Source: a virus
IMG/VR virus record: IMGVR_UViG_3300029495_000074
Reading direction: 5' to 3' (one strand)
DNA: 6,070 bases
Both the position numbers and the translations under genes were made by a program. Shown here piece after piece: positions 1 to 6,070 of the stretch (its first letter is position 1; every line of letters begins with the position of its first letter). Under the pieces are notes generated by a model. The model saw nothing but the letters and a program-made list of their open reading frames with translations, made no database searches and had not been told where the DNA came from.

Positions 1-123
1 ACAAAATAGCGTAATTTGCCCCTGTAAGCCTTTCTGAGCCGTTTTAAAAATTTTTGAACGTCAGGATACAGTAACGTTTGGACGCTTTCAGGGCGCTTCT
101 CTCCCGGCTTCCAGACGTATTGC
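1..123. repeat. Terminal direct repeat, copy 1. Identical to 5948..6070. Interpreted as the assembly overlap of a circular 5947-nt genome.
   Basis: Base-by-base comparison: acaaaatagcgtaatttgcc...ccagacgtattgc occurs at both ends of the window with no mismatch. An ORF reads through the join without a stop. Confidence 0.95.
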
Positions 124-446
124 ACTTTTCGCATGATTTCACCTGTGTTTATAATCATTCCCGGTACATGGTCGTCATCATAGGTTAGTGTAATAAACCA
201 GACTTGTTCTTTTGGATAATCTCGTGCTTCCAATTCTATTCGCGTTGTCCAGTCCTCACGTTGCCTGATTCTGCACCCAATACATTGTCCGCATGGTATT
301 AGCATAATGTTTTTTTGGTACATCAAATCTTCATATTTGAGCTGTTTCCCTGACATTTCAGAAAAACGGGCGAGTGAATACACCCGCCCGCTTATATCTT
401 TGTTGTTCGGGTTGTACAGCCTTATTAATGGCTTGTAGCAACTCAT
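1..446 (-). CDS. VP4: Replication initiation protein VP4 (HUH rolling-circle Rep), N-terminal part. It continues into 5947..5374 across the circular junction. The full gene is 1020 nt (339 aa).
   Basis: Manual reverse-complement translation from ATG 446..444 has no stop: MSCYKPLIRLYNPNNKDISGRVYSLARFSEMSGKQLKYEDLMYQKNIMLIPCGQCIGCRIRQREDWTTRIELEARDYPKEQVWFITLTYDDDHVPG...LRKAYRGKLRYFV. The M-x-C-x-x-P start, CGQCIGCR and FITLTYD motifs are typical of Microviridae VP4. The ATG overlaps the VP2 TGA (ATGA) and has an AGGTGA SD-like element upstream. The frame (codon first bases at positions 2 mod 3) matches the 5374..5904 ORF when joined. It is missing from the ORF track because it runs off the window start. 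Confidence 0.9.
   Translation of the reverse strand, partial: MSCYKPLIRLYNPNNKDISGRVYSLARFSEMSGKQLKYEDLMYQKNIMLIPCGQCIGCRIRQREDWTTRIELEARDYPKEQVWFITLTYDDDHVPGMIINTGEIMRKVQYVWKPGEKRPESVQTLLYPDVQKFLKRLRKAYRGKLRYF
361..390 (-). terminator. Candidate intrinsic terminator or attenuator embedded in the 5' end of VP4, just downstream of the VP2 stop.
   Basis: The minus strand reads CGGGCGgGTG-TATT-CACtCGCCCG followed by TTTTTCT. That gives a 6-bp GC stem plus 3 more bp across one mismatch, a 4-nt loop and a T-tract. Because it lies inside the coding sequence (codons SGRVYSLARFS), its function is an inference. Confidence 0.4.
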
Positions 447-1335: not shown

Positions 1336-3033
1336 TTACAGTTTGTACAAGCCCGGTACGCTGTACAAAGGTATCCGTCTTGTGGTCTTGTTTGCTACGC
1401 GGATTGCGCCAAAAAATTGCGGCTCGTCCTGTACGATGAGCGTGCGTGCAATTTCTTCTTTTCCTTCTGTCATCCATTCTTGCGACAGTGTCGGTACAGT
1501 CGAGTAGTTGTCGGCGTAGTGCCAGAAGTCCAGCGGACCTGTCGCGTTGCTTCTCATTTTGCCGGATACGCGGTTAGGCTTCATTCGATAGTCTGCCCAA
1601 GCTTCTTGGTAACCAAATGTTTCTTCGTCTGTTGCTTCTCCGGTCAACATGATTTCCTTTTTCTTCACAGGCTGTTCGCCCAAGTTTGCAAACTGAGGCA
1701 CGTAGTAGTCTAACCTGTCCGTTCTGCTCCAAAAACGTTCCAGGCCTTGCTGGTAACTGTGATTGTGTCGCACACAACAGACACCGATTACGAACCCGTG
1801 TTCCTCAAAGGACTTTGTAAAACTGCTTTCGTTGATGGGTGTTACTGACATTGCGCCAGTTTCGCCGATCGGCGTGTCTGTGTCGCTTTTCTGTCCGCTG
1901 GTTTGTACGATCTGGTTCATGTTGACGCGGTATCTGCCACCGCCCAGGTACTCCGGTACTTGTACTGTTTTATCCGAGATTACCACATCCCATAGTGCCT
2001 GTACCTGCTCACGGTATCTGCTACCACCTCTTGCCAGCGCTTCGTAATATTGCTGTACTGCTACGGCTTTTCGCAAGTCGTTGATTGTTGCGGCGGAGAC
2101 TGATGCGAGGTCTGCGCCTAGGTATACTACGCTGTGTTCCGACCCCGTTCCGTCTCCAATGGCTAAGTATGCTGATCCTGTGCCTCCATCTTCTGCGATT
2201 GCATACAGTTTGTCTTTGATATTGGTCGGGTTTGTGTTTCCGTCATGAAAGCTGTTTACATATAGAGGTGCTTTTTCGTTAAATTTGTCACTTGTGTATC
2301 CGGTTATTCTTGCATTACCTTGCATCGGCAGCATTACTTCTGGCCCGCGCTGCGGATACGGTAAGCAGCTGGTAAAGTAGTCGTGGAATTTGCTGACCGG
2401 TAAACAATAGCCCCCTTTGTATGCGTTTTTTAGTCTATTTTCAATTGTTGCTTCTTTTTCGTTTATTCCGCTTTTTGTTCCTGTGTCGTAAACCACATCT
2501 TGGCTTGCCGTTTGGATTGTTGCTGCGTTTTCAACGTTTTCGTCTCTGAAAAATTCATTCCATATTTTTACGTATGCTCTGACTGGTAGTGCGTTGATAG
2601 CGAATGTGTTCTTTATTTTTGTCGGCACTCCCATGTAGTCAAGGATAGTTCCTTCCGCTGGTTTTGGAATTCCTCCTCCTGTTACGGTTATCACAATTTT
2701 TGGTACTTTGTAATTTTTTTCTGGCATCCAAGGTGTGTCTTCTACTTCTCCCATGAATTTTTTGAAGTCATCCCATAAAATGCGGTTGGGACAATAGAAA
2801 TAATAGAAGTCAATGAATGCATCATCCATCACCGGATACTTTGGCGTGGTCATTCTTATGATTGCGCTTGTGTCTACGCTGAACGTATCGCCTGGAAGCA
2901 CTTCGTCCACGTAGAACGGAATCAGTTTGCCGGCATCAAACGTTGTTAAAATCGTCTGGTCACGGTTGAATCTTGTTCGACTTGCTTTCATTTCTGGGAT
3001 TTGGTTGAAGTGCCGTTCATTGTTTCGATTCAC
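1336..3033 (-). CDS. VP1: Major capsid protein VP1 (F-like jelly-roll), 565 aa, GTG start.
   Basis: Size and N-terminus are typical of the Microviridae MCP: ...HFNQIPEMKASRTRFNRDQTILTTFDAGKLIPFYVDEVLPGDTF.... The start codon is GTG (plus-strand cac 3031..3033) with AAGGAGG 7 nt upstream. GTGA overlaps the VP3 stop. Confidence 0.95.
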   Translation of the reverse strand: MNRNNERHFNQIPEMKASRTRFNRDQTILTTFDAGKLIPFYVDEVLPGDTFSVDTSAIIRMTTPKYPVMDDAFIDFYYFYCPNRILWDDFKKFMGEVEDTPWMPEKNYKVPKIVITVTGGGIPKPAEGTILDYMGVPTKIKNTFAINALPVRAYVKIWNEFFRDENVENAATIQTASQDVVYDTGTKSGINEKEATIENRLKNAYKGGYCLPVSKFHDYFTSCLPYPQRGPEVMLPMQGNARITGYTSDKFNEKAPLYVNSFHDGNTNPTNIKDKLYAIAEDGGTGSAYLAIGDGTGSEHSVVYLGADLASVSAATINDLRKAVAVQQYYEALARGGSRYREQVQALWDVVISDKTVQVPEYLGGGRYRVNMNQIVQTSGQKSDTDTPIGETGAMSVTPINESSFTKSFEEHGFVIGVCCVRHNHSYQQGLERFWSRTDRLDYYVPQFANLGEQPVKKKEIMLTGEATDEETFGYQEAWADYRMKPNRVSGKMRSNATGPLDFWHYADNYSTVPTLSQEWMTEGKEEIARTLIVQDEPQFFGAIRVANKTTRRIPLYSVPGLYKL

Positions 3034-3428
3034 TTTTCTCCCTCCTTTGCTTCAGGTTCTGCTTTTGTTTTTTCCGCTTCCATTTTTTTTAGCTCTTCAA
3101 GCTTCATTGCGTTTGCTTGTGCGGTTGCAATCATGCGGTGGTACTCGTGGATGTTTTGCGGAAATTCGGTAATGTCTGTGTATGTACCGTTTAATGCTCC
3201 TTCTGATAAACTTTTAAGAAACTGTGGGTCAAAACTTGCTTTTCGGACAATGCTTTTGATATCGCATTCGTCTGCATAGCTTTCGATTTCTTGTTGGATG
3301 TCGATTGGTGCAGTTTCTTGGAGTACTTCTTGTCCTTTTTCGTCTTTCGTCCAGACGTATTGCTTTCGGAATTTTTCTCCGCTTTCAGAAAAGAAGGGCT
3401 CGCGCCCTTCTTCGTATCGTTTATTCAT
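3030..3428 (-). CDS. VP3: Internal scaffolding protein VP3 (132 aa).
   Basis: It lies immediately upstream of VP1, as in gokushoviruses. It is acidic and helical with a Lys/Glu-rich C-terminus. The start was chosen at ATG 3428 because GGGAGGG lies 8 nt upstream and the ATG overlaps the VP5 stop (ATGAATAA). The longer track ORF to 3548 lacks a usable SD. Confidence 0.7.
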   Translation of the reverse strand: MNKRYEEGREPFFSESGEKFRKQYVWTKDEKGQEVLQETAPIDIQQEIESYADECDIKSIVRKASFDPQFLKSLSEGALNGTYTDITEFPQNIHEYHRMIATAQANAMKLEELKKMEAEKTKAEPEAKEGEK

Positions 3429-3660
3429 TCGGCTTGCCCTCCCATGTTTTTTCCTTTTCGTTTGTAAATTCGCCGGTTTCGTCTTCAAAAACCGCCAGCT
3501 TAAAGCCGGTATAGTCGCCTGGCGCCTGTCCAACAAACGTTTTTTCATCCTTTGCCATAACGTTGCACATTCGTGCGAATGTTGCGTTGTTCTTGCTCTC
3601 TCCTACCCATGCATAGCATTTTGCCACGCTGTCCCACAAGCCGAAATATTCATGCTTCAT
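3421..3660 (-). CDS. VP5: VP5-like nonstructural protein (79 aa).
   Basis: MKHEYFGLWDSVAKCYAWV...ATFARMCN...PGDYTGFKLAVFEDETGEF matches my recollection of the gokushovirus VP5 pattern (x-D-S-K-A-x-x-Y near the N-terminus, D-F/Y-T-L-F-E-L-G-x-F-D-x-x-T-G later). The AAAGGAGAG SD lies upstream of ATG 3660. Its position upstream of VP3 is syntenic. Confidence 0.7.
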   Translation of the reverse strand: MKHEYFGLWDSVAKCYAWVGESKNNATFARMCNVMAKDEKTFVGQAPGDYTGFKLAVFEDETGEFTNEKEKTWEGKPNE

Positions 3661-4135: not shown

Positions 4136-4528
4136 TTATACCCCCTTTCTGTACTTTGCATTGCGTACATCAAAATGTATCCAGTTATCGTATACGATAA
4201 TGCCGCAATTGTTTGGTACGATTTTATTTAGCTCCTTTGCTACGTCTTTTGGTGTCATGCCGTTTACTCGGATATCTGCTGCGCATCCTCTCATGTGGTA
4301 GCTGTACTTTGCACCGCCAACTTTTTTGTTGTGTTCCGGTGTCCGGTATCCGCTGGTGATGATTATCGGTTTGTTGATTGTCTGCCGCAGCATCTCTAGC
4401 AGTGTTACTAGATATTCGTCGATAAACACGATCGGGCTCCCGTCTTTGCACGCAAATTCTTTTACTTTAAAGTGGTTTGTGATTTTTACGTTTCCGTCTG
4501 TGTCTGCGAGATAGCTCTTGATGTTCAT
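4136..4528 (-). CDS. Zinc peptidoglycan peptidase, Peptidase_M15 (M15_3/M15A, LAS-fold) family. Candidate endolysin (130 aa).
   Basis: The family motifs appear in the expected order: F-K-V-K-E-F-A-C-K-D-G, then SGYRTPEHNKKVGGAKYSYHMRGCAADI (the S-x-H-x-x-G-x-A-x-D zinc-ligand motif), then WIHFDV (H-x-D). No N-terminal signal peptide or TM segment is visible. Confidence 0.85.
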   Translation of the reverse strand: MNIKSYLADTDGNVKITNHFKVKEFACKDGSPIVFIDEYLVTLLEMLRQTINKPIIITSGYRTPEHNKKVGGAKYSYHMRGCAADIRVNGMTPKDVAKELNKIVPNNCGIIVYDNWIHFDVRNAKYRKGV

Positions 4529-4759: not shown

Positions 4760-4807
4760 TTTGTTTCACTTCTTTCTTTTTTTTGAGGTTTCTCTCTCTC
4801 TTTTTGT

Positions 4808-4836
4808 ATTATACCACTTTATGCTTTTTTTTGCAA
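4808..4836 (-). promoter_or_regulatory. Near-consensus sigma70/sigmaA promoter with an extended -10, driving the whole minus-strand operon.
   Basis: The minus strand reads TTGCAA (4836..4831), a 17-nt spacer ending in TGG, then TATAAT (4813..4808), i.e. TGnTATAAT. It lies at the downstream edge of the noncoding region, directly upstream of the first ORF. Confidence 0.75.
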
Positions 4837-5002
4837 GTGAATGTTTTTCATCTTAGCGTTAATCGTTTTTTAGTCTTGACTTTCATAGTTTGTTCATTTT
4901 TGTTGCTGGTCTTGCTCCTTTGTTTTGAATGCGCTTTAGCGCTCTTCCGTGCGTAGCGTATGCGGAGCTCGGATAATCCATTCATTGTAAGCGCTGTGCG
5001 CG

Positions 5003-5169
5003 TTTTCAACACTTTCAACAGTTTCAACAGGTTTTCAACATAAAGTTGCACAAAGGTTTTCGTCATTTTGACGGACTTTCAACAATTCAACAAGTTTTCA
5101 ATAAAACTTTCAACAGTGTTTTTTGCTTTTTATTTACGCTTTAGCGTTAAATTTTAGTACTTTTCAACT
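5003..5169. repeat. Array of nine direct yTTTCAACA repeats (TGTTGAAAr on the coding strand): two clusters of four plus one outlier.
   Basis: The 9-mers start at 5003 TTTTCAACA, 5012 CTTTCAACA, 5021 GTTTCAACA and 5032 TTTTCAACA. After a 35-bp spacer holding a CGTCA-TTT-TGACG mini-hairpin (5061..5073), they continue at 5076 CTTTCAACA, 5084 AATTCAACA, 5095 TTTTCAATA and 5107 CTTTCAACA, with an outlier at 5161 TTTTCAACT. Spacing within clusters is 8 to 12 bp. Confidence 0.85.
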
Positions 5170-5253
5170 TTTCCACTACCTCTACTACTACTCCTACAAC
5201 AAGTTATATATTATACGGCGCTTGTGAGCTTGCGAACAATAGCGCCTAAGAGC

Positions 5254-5296
5254 CGCGCGTGCGCGCGTGCGCGCTTCGCGCGCGTGCGCACGTGCG
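5254..5296. other. GC-rich alternating pyrimidine-purine (CG/TG) inverted repeat: a 20-bp hairpin and Z-DNA-prone tract.
   Basis: 5254..5274 (21 nt) and 5277..5296 (20 nt) each alternate Py-Pu perfectly. On the plus strand 5254..5273 pairs with 5296..5277 as 17 Watson-Crick plus 3 G-T pairs with a CTT loop. On the minus strand the three wobbles become A-C mismatches. Confidence 0.8.
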
Positions 5297-5318
5297 ATAA
5301 GAGATAGCTATTTGATAG

Positions 5319-5358
5319 ACCTAGCCCAGTATCTTACTTGATAGGTACTGGGCTAGGT
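5319..5358. other. Perfect 13-bp inverted repeat (stem-loop) 16 nt downstream of the Rep stop. Candidate origin or terminator structure.
   Basis: ACCTAGCCCAGTA (5319..5331) pairs with TACTGGGCTAGGT (5346..5358). The 14-nt loop is TCTTACTTGATAGG, which can tighten to an 8-nt loop TACTTGAT through three further pairs (5332-5345 G-T wobble, 5333-5344, 5334-5343). Confidence 0.8.
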
Positions 5359-5373
5359 GACACTATGACACTG

Positions 5374-6070
5374 TTAAAGTGTCCCTCTCTTCTTCGTTTG
5401 CTTCTTGATTACTCTCTCCCTCGTTTTACACTGTTCTGCAAAGTCTGTGTTCTCATACTTTAGCCGGTTTTCTGCTATCGCTGCTTCTTGTCTGTTCTGT
5501 TTAATTCTCCACAATCTTTGTGGGTTTTCAGCTTCCATTTTCTTTTCATAGTATCGTGGTATCTGCGCGTGCTTTCCGTTTGTACACTGTATATAGCCTT
5601 GTCTCCAGATTTCTGCTTTGTGTTTTTCGTAATAGTTGTCTCCTAAACCCGGCTTTAGGCTCATACATGCAAATGGTTTTGCTTGCCCTAGCTCGTAGTA
5701 TGCGTTTGCTTTTTGACCGTCTATCTCATACATTTTTTTTGTGACGTATCCAGCAACATATCTATATGTTTCCGGCACTGCTTGTGCTATCTGTATTTGA
5801 CCCATGCCCCATAGGTCTGCTAGCCATTTACTTGTAAAGTATCCGTTGTGTTGTATCTTGTATAGGTGTTCTAGGTCTGTTGGTTGCCATCCATACAAGA
5901 TCATGTGGTAATGTGGTCTTGCTGTCTGTTCTCCGTATTCTCCCGCTACAAAATAGCGTAATTTGCCCCTGTAAGCCTTTCTGAGCCGTTTTAAAAATTT
6001 TTGAACGTCAGGATACAGTAACGTTTGGACGCTTTCAGGGCGCTTCTCTCCCGGCTTCCAGACGTATTGC
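5374..6070 (-). CDS. VP4: Replication initiation protein VP4, C-terminal part. 5948..6070 duplicates codons already listed in 1..123.
   Basis: The track ORF 5374..5904 stays open upstream to the window end: ...RYFVAGEYGEQTARPHYHMILYGW... It carries the HUH motif (HYH) and the catalytic tyrosine region YRYVAGYVTKKMY. The stop TAA is at 5374..5376. Confidence 0.9.
   Translation of the reverse strand, partial: QYVWKPGEKRPESVQTLLYPDVQKFLKRLRKAYRGKLRYFVAGEYGEQTARPHYHMILYGWQPTDLEHLYKIQHNGYFTSKWLADLWGMGQIQIAQAVPETYRYVAGYVTKKMYEIDGQKANAYYELGQAKPFACMSLKPGLGDNYYEKHKAEIWRQGYIQCTNGKHAQIPRYYEKKMEAENPQRLWRIKQNRQEAAIAENRLKYENTDFAEQCKTRERVIKKQTKKRGTL
5948..6070. repeat. Terminal direct repeat, copy 2 (redundant with 1..123).
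   Basis: Same 123-nt string as 1..123, so position 5948 is equivalent to position 1. Confidence 0.95.

Follow-up and report, generated by a model that had tools for sequence, protein, structure and literature searches.

A strand-specific (YG)n hairpin next to a putative nick site in a gut gokushovirus, and its possible role as a complementary-strand signal

The window analyzed here is the whole 6,070-nucleotide stretch of the IMG/VR virus record IMGVR_UViG_3300029495_000074, numbered from its first letter. It contains the complete, circular genome of a gokushovirus (Microviridae), which measures 5947 nt after removal of a 123-nt terminal repeat. The direct repeat is exact (window 1-123 equals 5948-6070) and is the overlap from circular assembly. 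Its nucleotide identity with the human gut gokushoviruses KX513868 and KT264791 is 83-84%. The genome has the composition of a member of the Gokushovirinae, with a Phage_F major capsid protein, a Chlamy_scaf VP3, an ORF5/VP5 and an HUH VP4 as seen in Pfam, and its length is within the range of about 4.5-6 kb. The coding strand of every gene is the minus strand of the window, and the plus strand is referred to below also as the antisense strand. The genes comprise VP2 (443-1297), VP1 (1336-3033; Phage_F, 7e-136), VP3 (3030-3548), VP5 (3421-3660) and an M15 peptidase gene (4136-4528; Peptidase_M15_3, 1.2e-23), all on the minus strand. The peptidase gene, which is common to related gut gokushoviruses, is located between the small ORFs and VP5/VP3, and its product is probably a lysis enzyme. 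The VP4 gene is split by the terminal repeat and reads 446..124 joined to 6070..5374 on the minus strand, with its 3' part in 5374..6070; the start of the gene and the stop of VP2 overlap. Its product is an HUH initiator of rolling-circle replication that resembles phiX174 A (PF23343 match, 3e-17), with the HUH motif PHYHMILY and the two-tyrosine motif RYVAGYVTKK, which corresponds to FYVAKYVNKK in phiX A. We looked for a host in 185,579 species genomes, using the nick-hairpin pattern described below and the VP1 protein as queries, and there was no match to either.

The main non-coding region extends from the VP4 stop (5374) to the next gene (5066), and houses an alternating CG/TG tract that is termed the (YG)n tract here. 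Several other elements were found around it. On the plus strand, 5004..5120 is occupied by an array in which TTTCAACA (read as TGTTGAAA from the gene strand) is repeated 6-8 times, and which is conserved across both clades of relatives considered in this study; the repeats are possibly iterons or promoter elements, and we take their variants TTTTCCAC(A) to resemble a relaxed DnaA box. Because the array extends into the 5' end of ORF 5066..4848, the annotated start of this ORF may be too far upstream. A small hairpin, ACGC-TTTA-GCGT, at 5136-5147 covaries in relatives (ACGT/ACGT; CGTAGCTACG; CGTATCTACG). The TAGCGT at 5143-5148 in this small hairpin, outside the (YG)n hairpin, resembles the CS-6 motif of ssoA. 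Directly 5' of the hairpin module there is a conserved block, CTACTACTACTCCTACAACAAGTTATATATTATAC, written also CTACTACTAC..CTACAACAAGTTATATATTATA (5182..5216, plus strand), which is present in both clades and contains a perfect TATAAT on the gene (minus) strand and four copies of the triplet CTA, at which the DnaG primases of Firmicutes prefer to initiate. This block and the TTTCAACA array may belong to the same module as the hairpins. Between the AT-rich block and the (YG)n hairpin, an accessory hairpin, GGCGCTTG...CAATAGCGCC (5217..5246, plus strand), is found in only part of the clade. At the other end of the region, a small hairpin GACAC...GTGTC (5359..5383, plus strand) overlaps the VP4 stop codon, and a hairpin at 5367-5383 on the plus strand, downstream of the tract, is weakly terminator-like and has a tail rich in T. 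A search of Rfam 15 over 4800-5500 returned only two chance-level matches (E 0.67 and 0.96), neither of which was on the tract.

The (YG)n hairpin itself consists of a left arm, CGCGCGTGCGCGCGTGCGCG (5254..5273), a loop, CTT (5274..5276), and a right arm, CGCGCGCGTGCGCACGTGCG (5277..5296), all given on the plus strand. The first-pass annotation, made from the letters of the window, had described a GC-rich island in a much less GC-rich genome, and this was borne out by a G+C content of 84% in the tract compared to 44% in the genome. Its alternating pyrimidine-purine runs of 21 nt (5254-5274) and 20 nt (5277-5296), parted by TT (5275-5276), were as described in both coordinates and sequence. They are the longest such runs in the genome, where the next longest has 12 nt, and they exceed the minimum of about 12 bp of alternating, mainly CG sequence that is taken to characterize a Z-DNA run. 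The two 20-nt arms (5254-5273 and 5277-5296) are inverted repeats that are 85% Watson-Crick and 3 nt apart, and they do pair on the plus strand through 17 Watson-Crick and 3 G·T pairs, as had been stated. The same annotation supposed that the palindromes of the tract are motifs that small phages usually avoid. General avoidance was not seen in this genome, because CpG observed/expected was 1.12 outside the tract and GCGC and CGCG occurred 26 and 13 times elsewhere; only the 6-mers GCGCGC, CGCGCG and CACGTG were confined to the tract.

The claim that one strand folds better than the other was confirmed by folding both strands as ssDNA. The plus strand formed an unbroken 20-bp stem of -27.7 kcal/mol (z = -4.76), and none of 200 dinucleotide shuffles was as good. 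The gene-sense (minus) strand contained three internal A·C mismatches and reached -20.9 kcal/mol (z = -1.25). Folded as RNA, the tract gave -43.5 kcal/mol in the plus sense versus -33.1 kcal/mol in the minus sense. A 20-bp stem in the main intergenic region, as defined above, is the kind of extensive secondary structure that a single-strand origin has. The strand asymmetry noted at first therefore stands, but it had been overlooked that the favored strand is antisense to every gene and that the tract has a putative nick-site hairpin as its neighbor, which would account for its location. No promoter-like or primosome-site sequence was recognized in or next to the (YG)n stem. Scans of the tract for sigma-70 promoters and intrinsic terminators called neither, and there is no T run after the stem on either strand, as an intrinsic terminator would have.

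The neighboring origin-like hairpin (5319..5358, plus strand) has a 16-bp stem with one T·G pair and the loop TACTTGAT (5335-5342, 8 nt between the arms). The loop carries the conserved motif ACTTGATAG at 5336-5344 on the plus strand. It matches the nick site CTTG^ATA, as seen in the annotated viral-strand origin of phiX174, CAACTTG^ATATTAATAAC (rep_origin 4305/4306), and the same string is the conserved origin string of the pC194/pUB110 plasmids (PMC5031790). By this homology, the 5319-5358 hairpin is the putative nick site of VP4, with a predicted cut between G5340 and A5341 on the plus strand. The core of the hairpin was invariant in 92 IMG/VR contigs, which had been found by searching for it. 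In a distant clade, the stem differs (CTCAGCCAAGTAGC/GTTACTTGGCTGAG) and covaries while the loop is conserved, and the single non-Watson-Crick pairs in clean stems of this clade are G·T on the antisense strand. The (YG)n hairpin and the ACTTGATAG-loop hairpin share the antisense strand, and the former was always located 25-110 nt 5' of the latter on the same strand.

A second, unpaired nick-like motif, CTATTTGATAGAC, is found at 5307..5319 on the plus strand. It has the form CTA(C/T)TTGATAGAC, and many relatives have exactly CTACTTGATAGAC. A function in Rep binding or in termination is conceivable for this copy, which directly precedes the origin hairpin on the 5' side. Compared with most close relatives, the window has a deletion of about 35 nt (GACTGAATAGACTGATACATGGAGTCTTTAGACGACAA) at ~5319, also directly 5' of this hairpin. 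The origin hairpin and its flank are tandemly duplicated in two contigs, L160 (antisense strand, near the start) and L091; this is either a true origin duplication or an assembly wrap-around.

The first-pass annotation had asked whether homologous genomes keep a GC hairpin at the same position through compensatory changes, and they do. A (YG)n hairpin with CG/TG/CA alternation was present at the same place in all six of the aligned GenBank relatives, with differing sequences. With the neighboring invariant hairpin as a probe, we retrieved the 92 IMG/VR contigs mentioned above, which brought the total to 99 loci. The tract was present in 97 of these 99 related gut gokushovirus loci, the left arm included, and was represented by 73 distinct sequences, 70 of which each folded as one stem of 15-22 bp (mode 20), closed by a T-rich loop of 3-4 nt such as TTT, CTT, CTAT or TCTA. 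The purine-pyrimidine alternation was kept in all relatives, and transitions alone were seen. A second clade, with VP1 about 53% identical, has a (YG)n hairpin in most of its genomes, 35-40 nt from its own nick-motif hairpin. A few clade members (L148, L097, L050, L023, L143 and L152) have a truncated or absent version, in which case the hairpin may be dispensable or may have collapsed in the assembly.

To characterize the pairing, we counted pairs in register at every stem position on the strand antisense to the genes, in 87 distinct hairpins. The first set of 70 hairpins contained 1027 G-C, 122 A-T, 273 G·T, 4 A·C and 8 other pairs. The 17 hairpins of the second clade contained 218 G-C, 37 A-T and 71 G·T pairs, with neither A·C nor other pairs. 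Pooled, the 87 hairpins had 1245 G-C, 159 A-T, 344 G·T and 4 A·C pairs on the antisense strand. Of 126 adenines counted in the first set alone, 122 were opposite a thymine. The antisense strand was the more stable one in 86 of the 87 hairpins, by 5-6 kcal/mol (69/70 in the first set, with a mean of 5.4 kcal/mol, and 17/17 in the second clade). Such a preference for one strand, with 344 G·T versus 4 A·C and 86 of 87 hairpins on the same side, is the strand specificity that characterizes a single-strand origin.

Covariation was counted in 23 hairpins of equal length, among which 99.5% of the cells were paired on the antisense strand in the true register, compared to 88-93.5% in registers shifted by +/-2. 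On the gene-sense strand, about 83% of the cells would pair, as derived from the same table. Both sides had changed at five stem pairs (14 cells), a result that was reached in 0 of 500 shuffles. The bias of C-to-T over G-to-A changes on the plus strand is about 4:1, as estimated from 4-fold sites on the assumption that T-to-C and A-to-G changes are about equally frequent. The ratio observed is 86:1, so that the wobble asymmetry cannot be put down to mutation bias alone. Because G·T is tolerated and A·C is excluded, selection must concern the single-stranded fold of the antisense (plus) strand. If the structure were one of the duplex (Z-DNA, a cruciform, a palindromic site for a protein), both transitions would be penalized equally. 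Thus, the selected object is the single-stranded fold, and selection acts on the hairpin of the antisense strand rather than on a cruciform or Z-DNA.

Nearly all Gokushovirinae have a hairpin whose loop contains (T/C)ACTTGAT, and its orientation relative to the genes differs among them. In Chlamydia phage Chp2 (AJ270057), the homologous hairpin CTAGCGTATAACAGTCTACTTGATCTGTTATACGCTAG (2904-2941) is on the coding strand, and GGTGA comes after it in both Chp2 and the window. We used VP1 to orient 77 environmental gokushoviruses, of which 49 had a CTTGAT-loop stem-loop on the coding strand and one clean case, L221, had it on the antisense strand. In the window's own clade, by comparison, the nick hairpin was antisense in 59 of the 66 VP1-oriented genomes; one genome had it on both strands, and in the other 6 it was not detected. 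The occurrences of CTTGATA in SpV4 and phiMH2K were not in convincing hairpin loops. As the nick hairpin is antisense in 59/66 genomes of this clade versus coding in Chp2 and the 49 environmental genomes, the putative origin is inverted relative to the genes in the window's clade, and it shares its strand with the (YG)n hairpin. In one environmental gokushovirus, L227, the coding strand carries both a similar (YG)n hairpin (3351-3396; TTT loop; 4 G·T and 0 A·C) and, about 2.6 kb away, the nick-motif hairpin. It fits the idea that (YG)n hairpins follow the nick strand, although as a single case it is anecdotal.

The base composition was also inspected with respect to strand polarity. At the 4-fold sites, the plus strand of the window has T 52%, C 20%, G 17% and A 11% (coding strand A 52, G 20, C 17 and T 11), which is similar to the virion strand of phiX174 with T 61%, C 21%, G 11% and A 7%. 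C-to-T pressure on ssDNA has been documented (PMC3278643). The skew would thus favor the plus strand as the packaged strand, but this support is weak because many gokushoviruses with the nick hairpin on the coding strand also have an excess of A over T on that strand, of up to +0.30. The extreme, A-rich synonymous skew of the coding strand in the window runs counter to the preference for NNT that has been reported in ssDNA phages. Across the 77 environmental gokushoviruses, AT and GC skews were anticorrelated (r = -0.40), with two main classes. When their hairpins were grouped by the AT-skew class of the genome, the G·T/A·C counts were 24/11, 31/35 and 34/36, in a comparison with few wobbles per genome and with composition as a confounder.

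Rolling-circle replication displaces the nicked strand, which is the one that Microviridae package. We consider the chances about even that the (YG)n hairpin is a single-strand-origin, or complementary-strand, signal in the origin region that would act on the displaced strand. This reading is based on the structure being selected on one strand only, just 5' of the nick motif. The first-pass annotation had listed a complementary-strand priming signal, a packaging or recognition hairpin and a supercoil-dependent switch as possible roles; among these, priming is the best fit. In the proposed scheme, VP4 would nick the plus strand at CTTG^ATA, and rolling-circle synthesis would displace this strand. 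The 20-bp, G+C-rich stem would persist on the displaced ssDNA coated with SSB, where it would mark the start of the complementary strand for the priming machinery of the host, whether RNA polymerase, primase or a PriA-type primosome. The (CG/TG)n composition would give the stem maximal stability and allow the arms to pair in any even register, and a C-to-T change would be tolerated as a G·T wobble on the plus strand only. Homology with phiX174 and pC194 suggests that the nick motif may be the true origin and the plus strand the ssDNA or virion strand. Single-strand origins of plasmids are orientation-specific and active on the displaced strand only, as large folded ssDNA recognized by RNA polymerase, primase or a primosome (PMC5703833; PMC4595007). 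Conserved intergenic hairpins have been proposed, without proof, as priming signals in other microviruses (PMC9865509).

A broader proposal, which we put forward tentatively and hold somewhat short of an even chance, is that in the widespread clade from human and pig gut the origin is inverted and the strand complementary to the mRNA is encapsidated. These would then be negative-sense Microviridae in which the (YG)n hairpin serves as a dedicated complementary-strand origin. Microviridae are described as positive-sense, and on the textbook view the antisense strand is not the virion strand. Because the hairpin is selected on the antisense strand, and shares it with the nick motif, the clade may nevertheless package the non-coding strand.

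Other readings of the hairpin have to be weighed against a single-strand origin. It could act in plus-sense RNA, either as a primer on a gene-sense virion strand or in an antisense or regulatory transcript that spans the origin. G·U pairs are well tolerated in RNA, and pairs of the G·T type stabilize RNA more than DNA; the tract folds better as plus-sense than as minus-sense RNA (-43.5 versus -33.1 kcal/mol). The textbook packaging of the positive-sense strand would be kept, and the weakly terminator-like hairpin at 5367-5383 (plus strand) lies downstream. However, we found neither a promoter-like site on the plus strand upstream of the tract nor an Rfam match, and the known priming systems of ssDNA phages select structure on the template DNA and not on the primer. 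The nick motif on the same strand, inverted compared to other gokushoviruses, would be left unexplained as well. We regard the RNA reading as unlikely.

A supercoil-dependent Z-DNA or cruciform structure in the RF might instead absorb or redistribute superhelical stress and, for example, modulate nicking by VP4 or transcription. The two perfect alternating purine-pyrimidine runs of 20-21 bp, mostly CG, would suit this role, as would the preservation of the alternation in all relatives by transitions only and the position next to the nick-site hairpin. By a crude estimate for the 5.9-kb circle, the B-Z transition would take place at a sigma of about -0.036, and a cruciform would be extruded between -0.03 and -0.05. 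A strand-symmetric duplex, however, predicts TG in a similar number to CA, even when the bias of about 4:1 is allowed for, and gives no reason for an A opposite a T; the 344 G·T versus 4 A·C, together with the 122 of 126 adenines (first set only) opposite thymine, do not support the switch, one of the possible roles in the first-pass annotation, as the selected feature. In a cruciform, the arm on the gene strand would hold about 19% A·C mismatches. Z-DNA, for its part, needs neither a constant layout of two arms with a T-rich spacer of 3-4 nt nor covariation that is specific to the register. The tract may well flip or extrude in supercoiled RF, as this estimate would have it, though selection visibly maintains something else, and we consider a Z-DNA or cruciform function quite improbable.

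Termination of a long gene-sense transcript after VP4, or insulation of the promoter region downstream, seems very doubtful to us. The tract lies between the VP4 stop (5374) and the repeat and TATAAT region that precedes the next minus-strand genes, and the stem of the minus-sense RNA is still stable at -33.1 kcal/mol; yet there is no U-run after the stem on the minus strand, the terminator scan was negative, and pairing is kept on the opposite strand, with A·C mismatches at about 19% of the stem positions on the mRNA-sense strand. The extreme composition of the tract relative to the genome, the error-prone assembly of palindromes and the truncated versions in a few relatives might suggest an artefact (of assembly, or a chimera) or a low-complexity island that arose by chance. 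Both can be dismissed because equivalent hairpins occur in independently sequenced GenBank genomes (human, pig and monkey) and in IMG/VR metagenome contigs from many samples, with sequences that differ and carry compensatory changes.

We searched the literature for the gokushovirus origin, the ACTTGAT-loop or (YG)n hairpin and the polarity of the packaged strand, and found no specific description. As far as we could find, the origins and complementary-strand priming signals of Gokushovirinae, the dominant ssDNA phages of the gut, are seemingly undefined so far. We propose a two-element origin module, in which a nick-site hairpin is combined with a strand-specific (YG)n hairpin, and this module is directly testable. 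The ratio of 86:1 between G·T and A·C is an unusually clean in-silico readout of the ssDNA strand, and it points opposite to the genes. If virion DNA confirms this polarity, the description of Microviridae as positive-sense would need qualifying. If the reading is true, thousands of ssDNA genomes from metagenomes could have their packaged strand assigned from the orientation of the nick motif together with the asymmetry of hairpin wobbles.

Compared to known systems, the (YG)n hairpin is similar to the n'/PriA hairpin of phiX174, the ori-c stem-loops of G4 and the minus-strand origins of M13/f1, in that it is a stable non-coding hairpin in a small circular ssDNA phage. Like these complementary-strand origins, it is kept by compensatory change and is proposed to work in single-stranded form, on one strand only. 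The primosome hairpin of phiX174, which sets the precedent in the family, has been summarized, and such hairpins have been proposed as needed by all microviruses (PMC9865509). In contrast to the origins of phiX174, G4 and M13, the (YG)n hairpin has no sequence similarity to them, forms a single 20-bp CG/TG stem in which no promoter-like or CTG-type features were recognized, and is antisense to the genes, directly 5' of the putative nick site. The conserved CTA-rich block of the window is 5' of the hairpin and not 3' as in G4.

The hairpin also resembles the single-strand origins of plasmids (ssoA, ssoU, ssoT and ssoW), which are orientation-specific and structured only on the displaced strand; in the window, the displaced strand is a putative one. 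Plasmid origins of this kind are about 130-300 nt long with several stem-loops and RSB/CS-6 motifs, whereas the window has one simple repeat hairpin. In ssoA-type origins, RSB and CS-6 (a TAGCGT-type loop) are contained in a structure of about 160 nt. A further likeness is the Rep of the phiX A/pC194 type with the nick site CTTG^ATA (PMC5703833; PMC4595007; PMC5031790). With d(CG)n/d(TG)n tracts that form Z-DNA and with origin cruciforms such as IR-II of pT181, the (YG)n tract shares perfect alternation, inverted symmetry and a nick site (a putative one in the window) as neighbor, and it is predicted, by the crude estimate above, to flip at moderate negative supercoiling. It differs from them in that G·T is tolerated and A·C excluded, on one strand only. 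The 5319-5358 hairpin, finally, is comparable to the phiX174 ori, the pC194 dso and the nonanucleotide stem-loop of CRESS-DNA viruses, with a CTTGATA loop, a covarying stem and an adjacent Rep gene. The phiX174 ori, however, is inside gene A and requires no hairpin, whereas the motif in the window's clade is on the non-coding strand.
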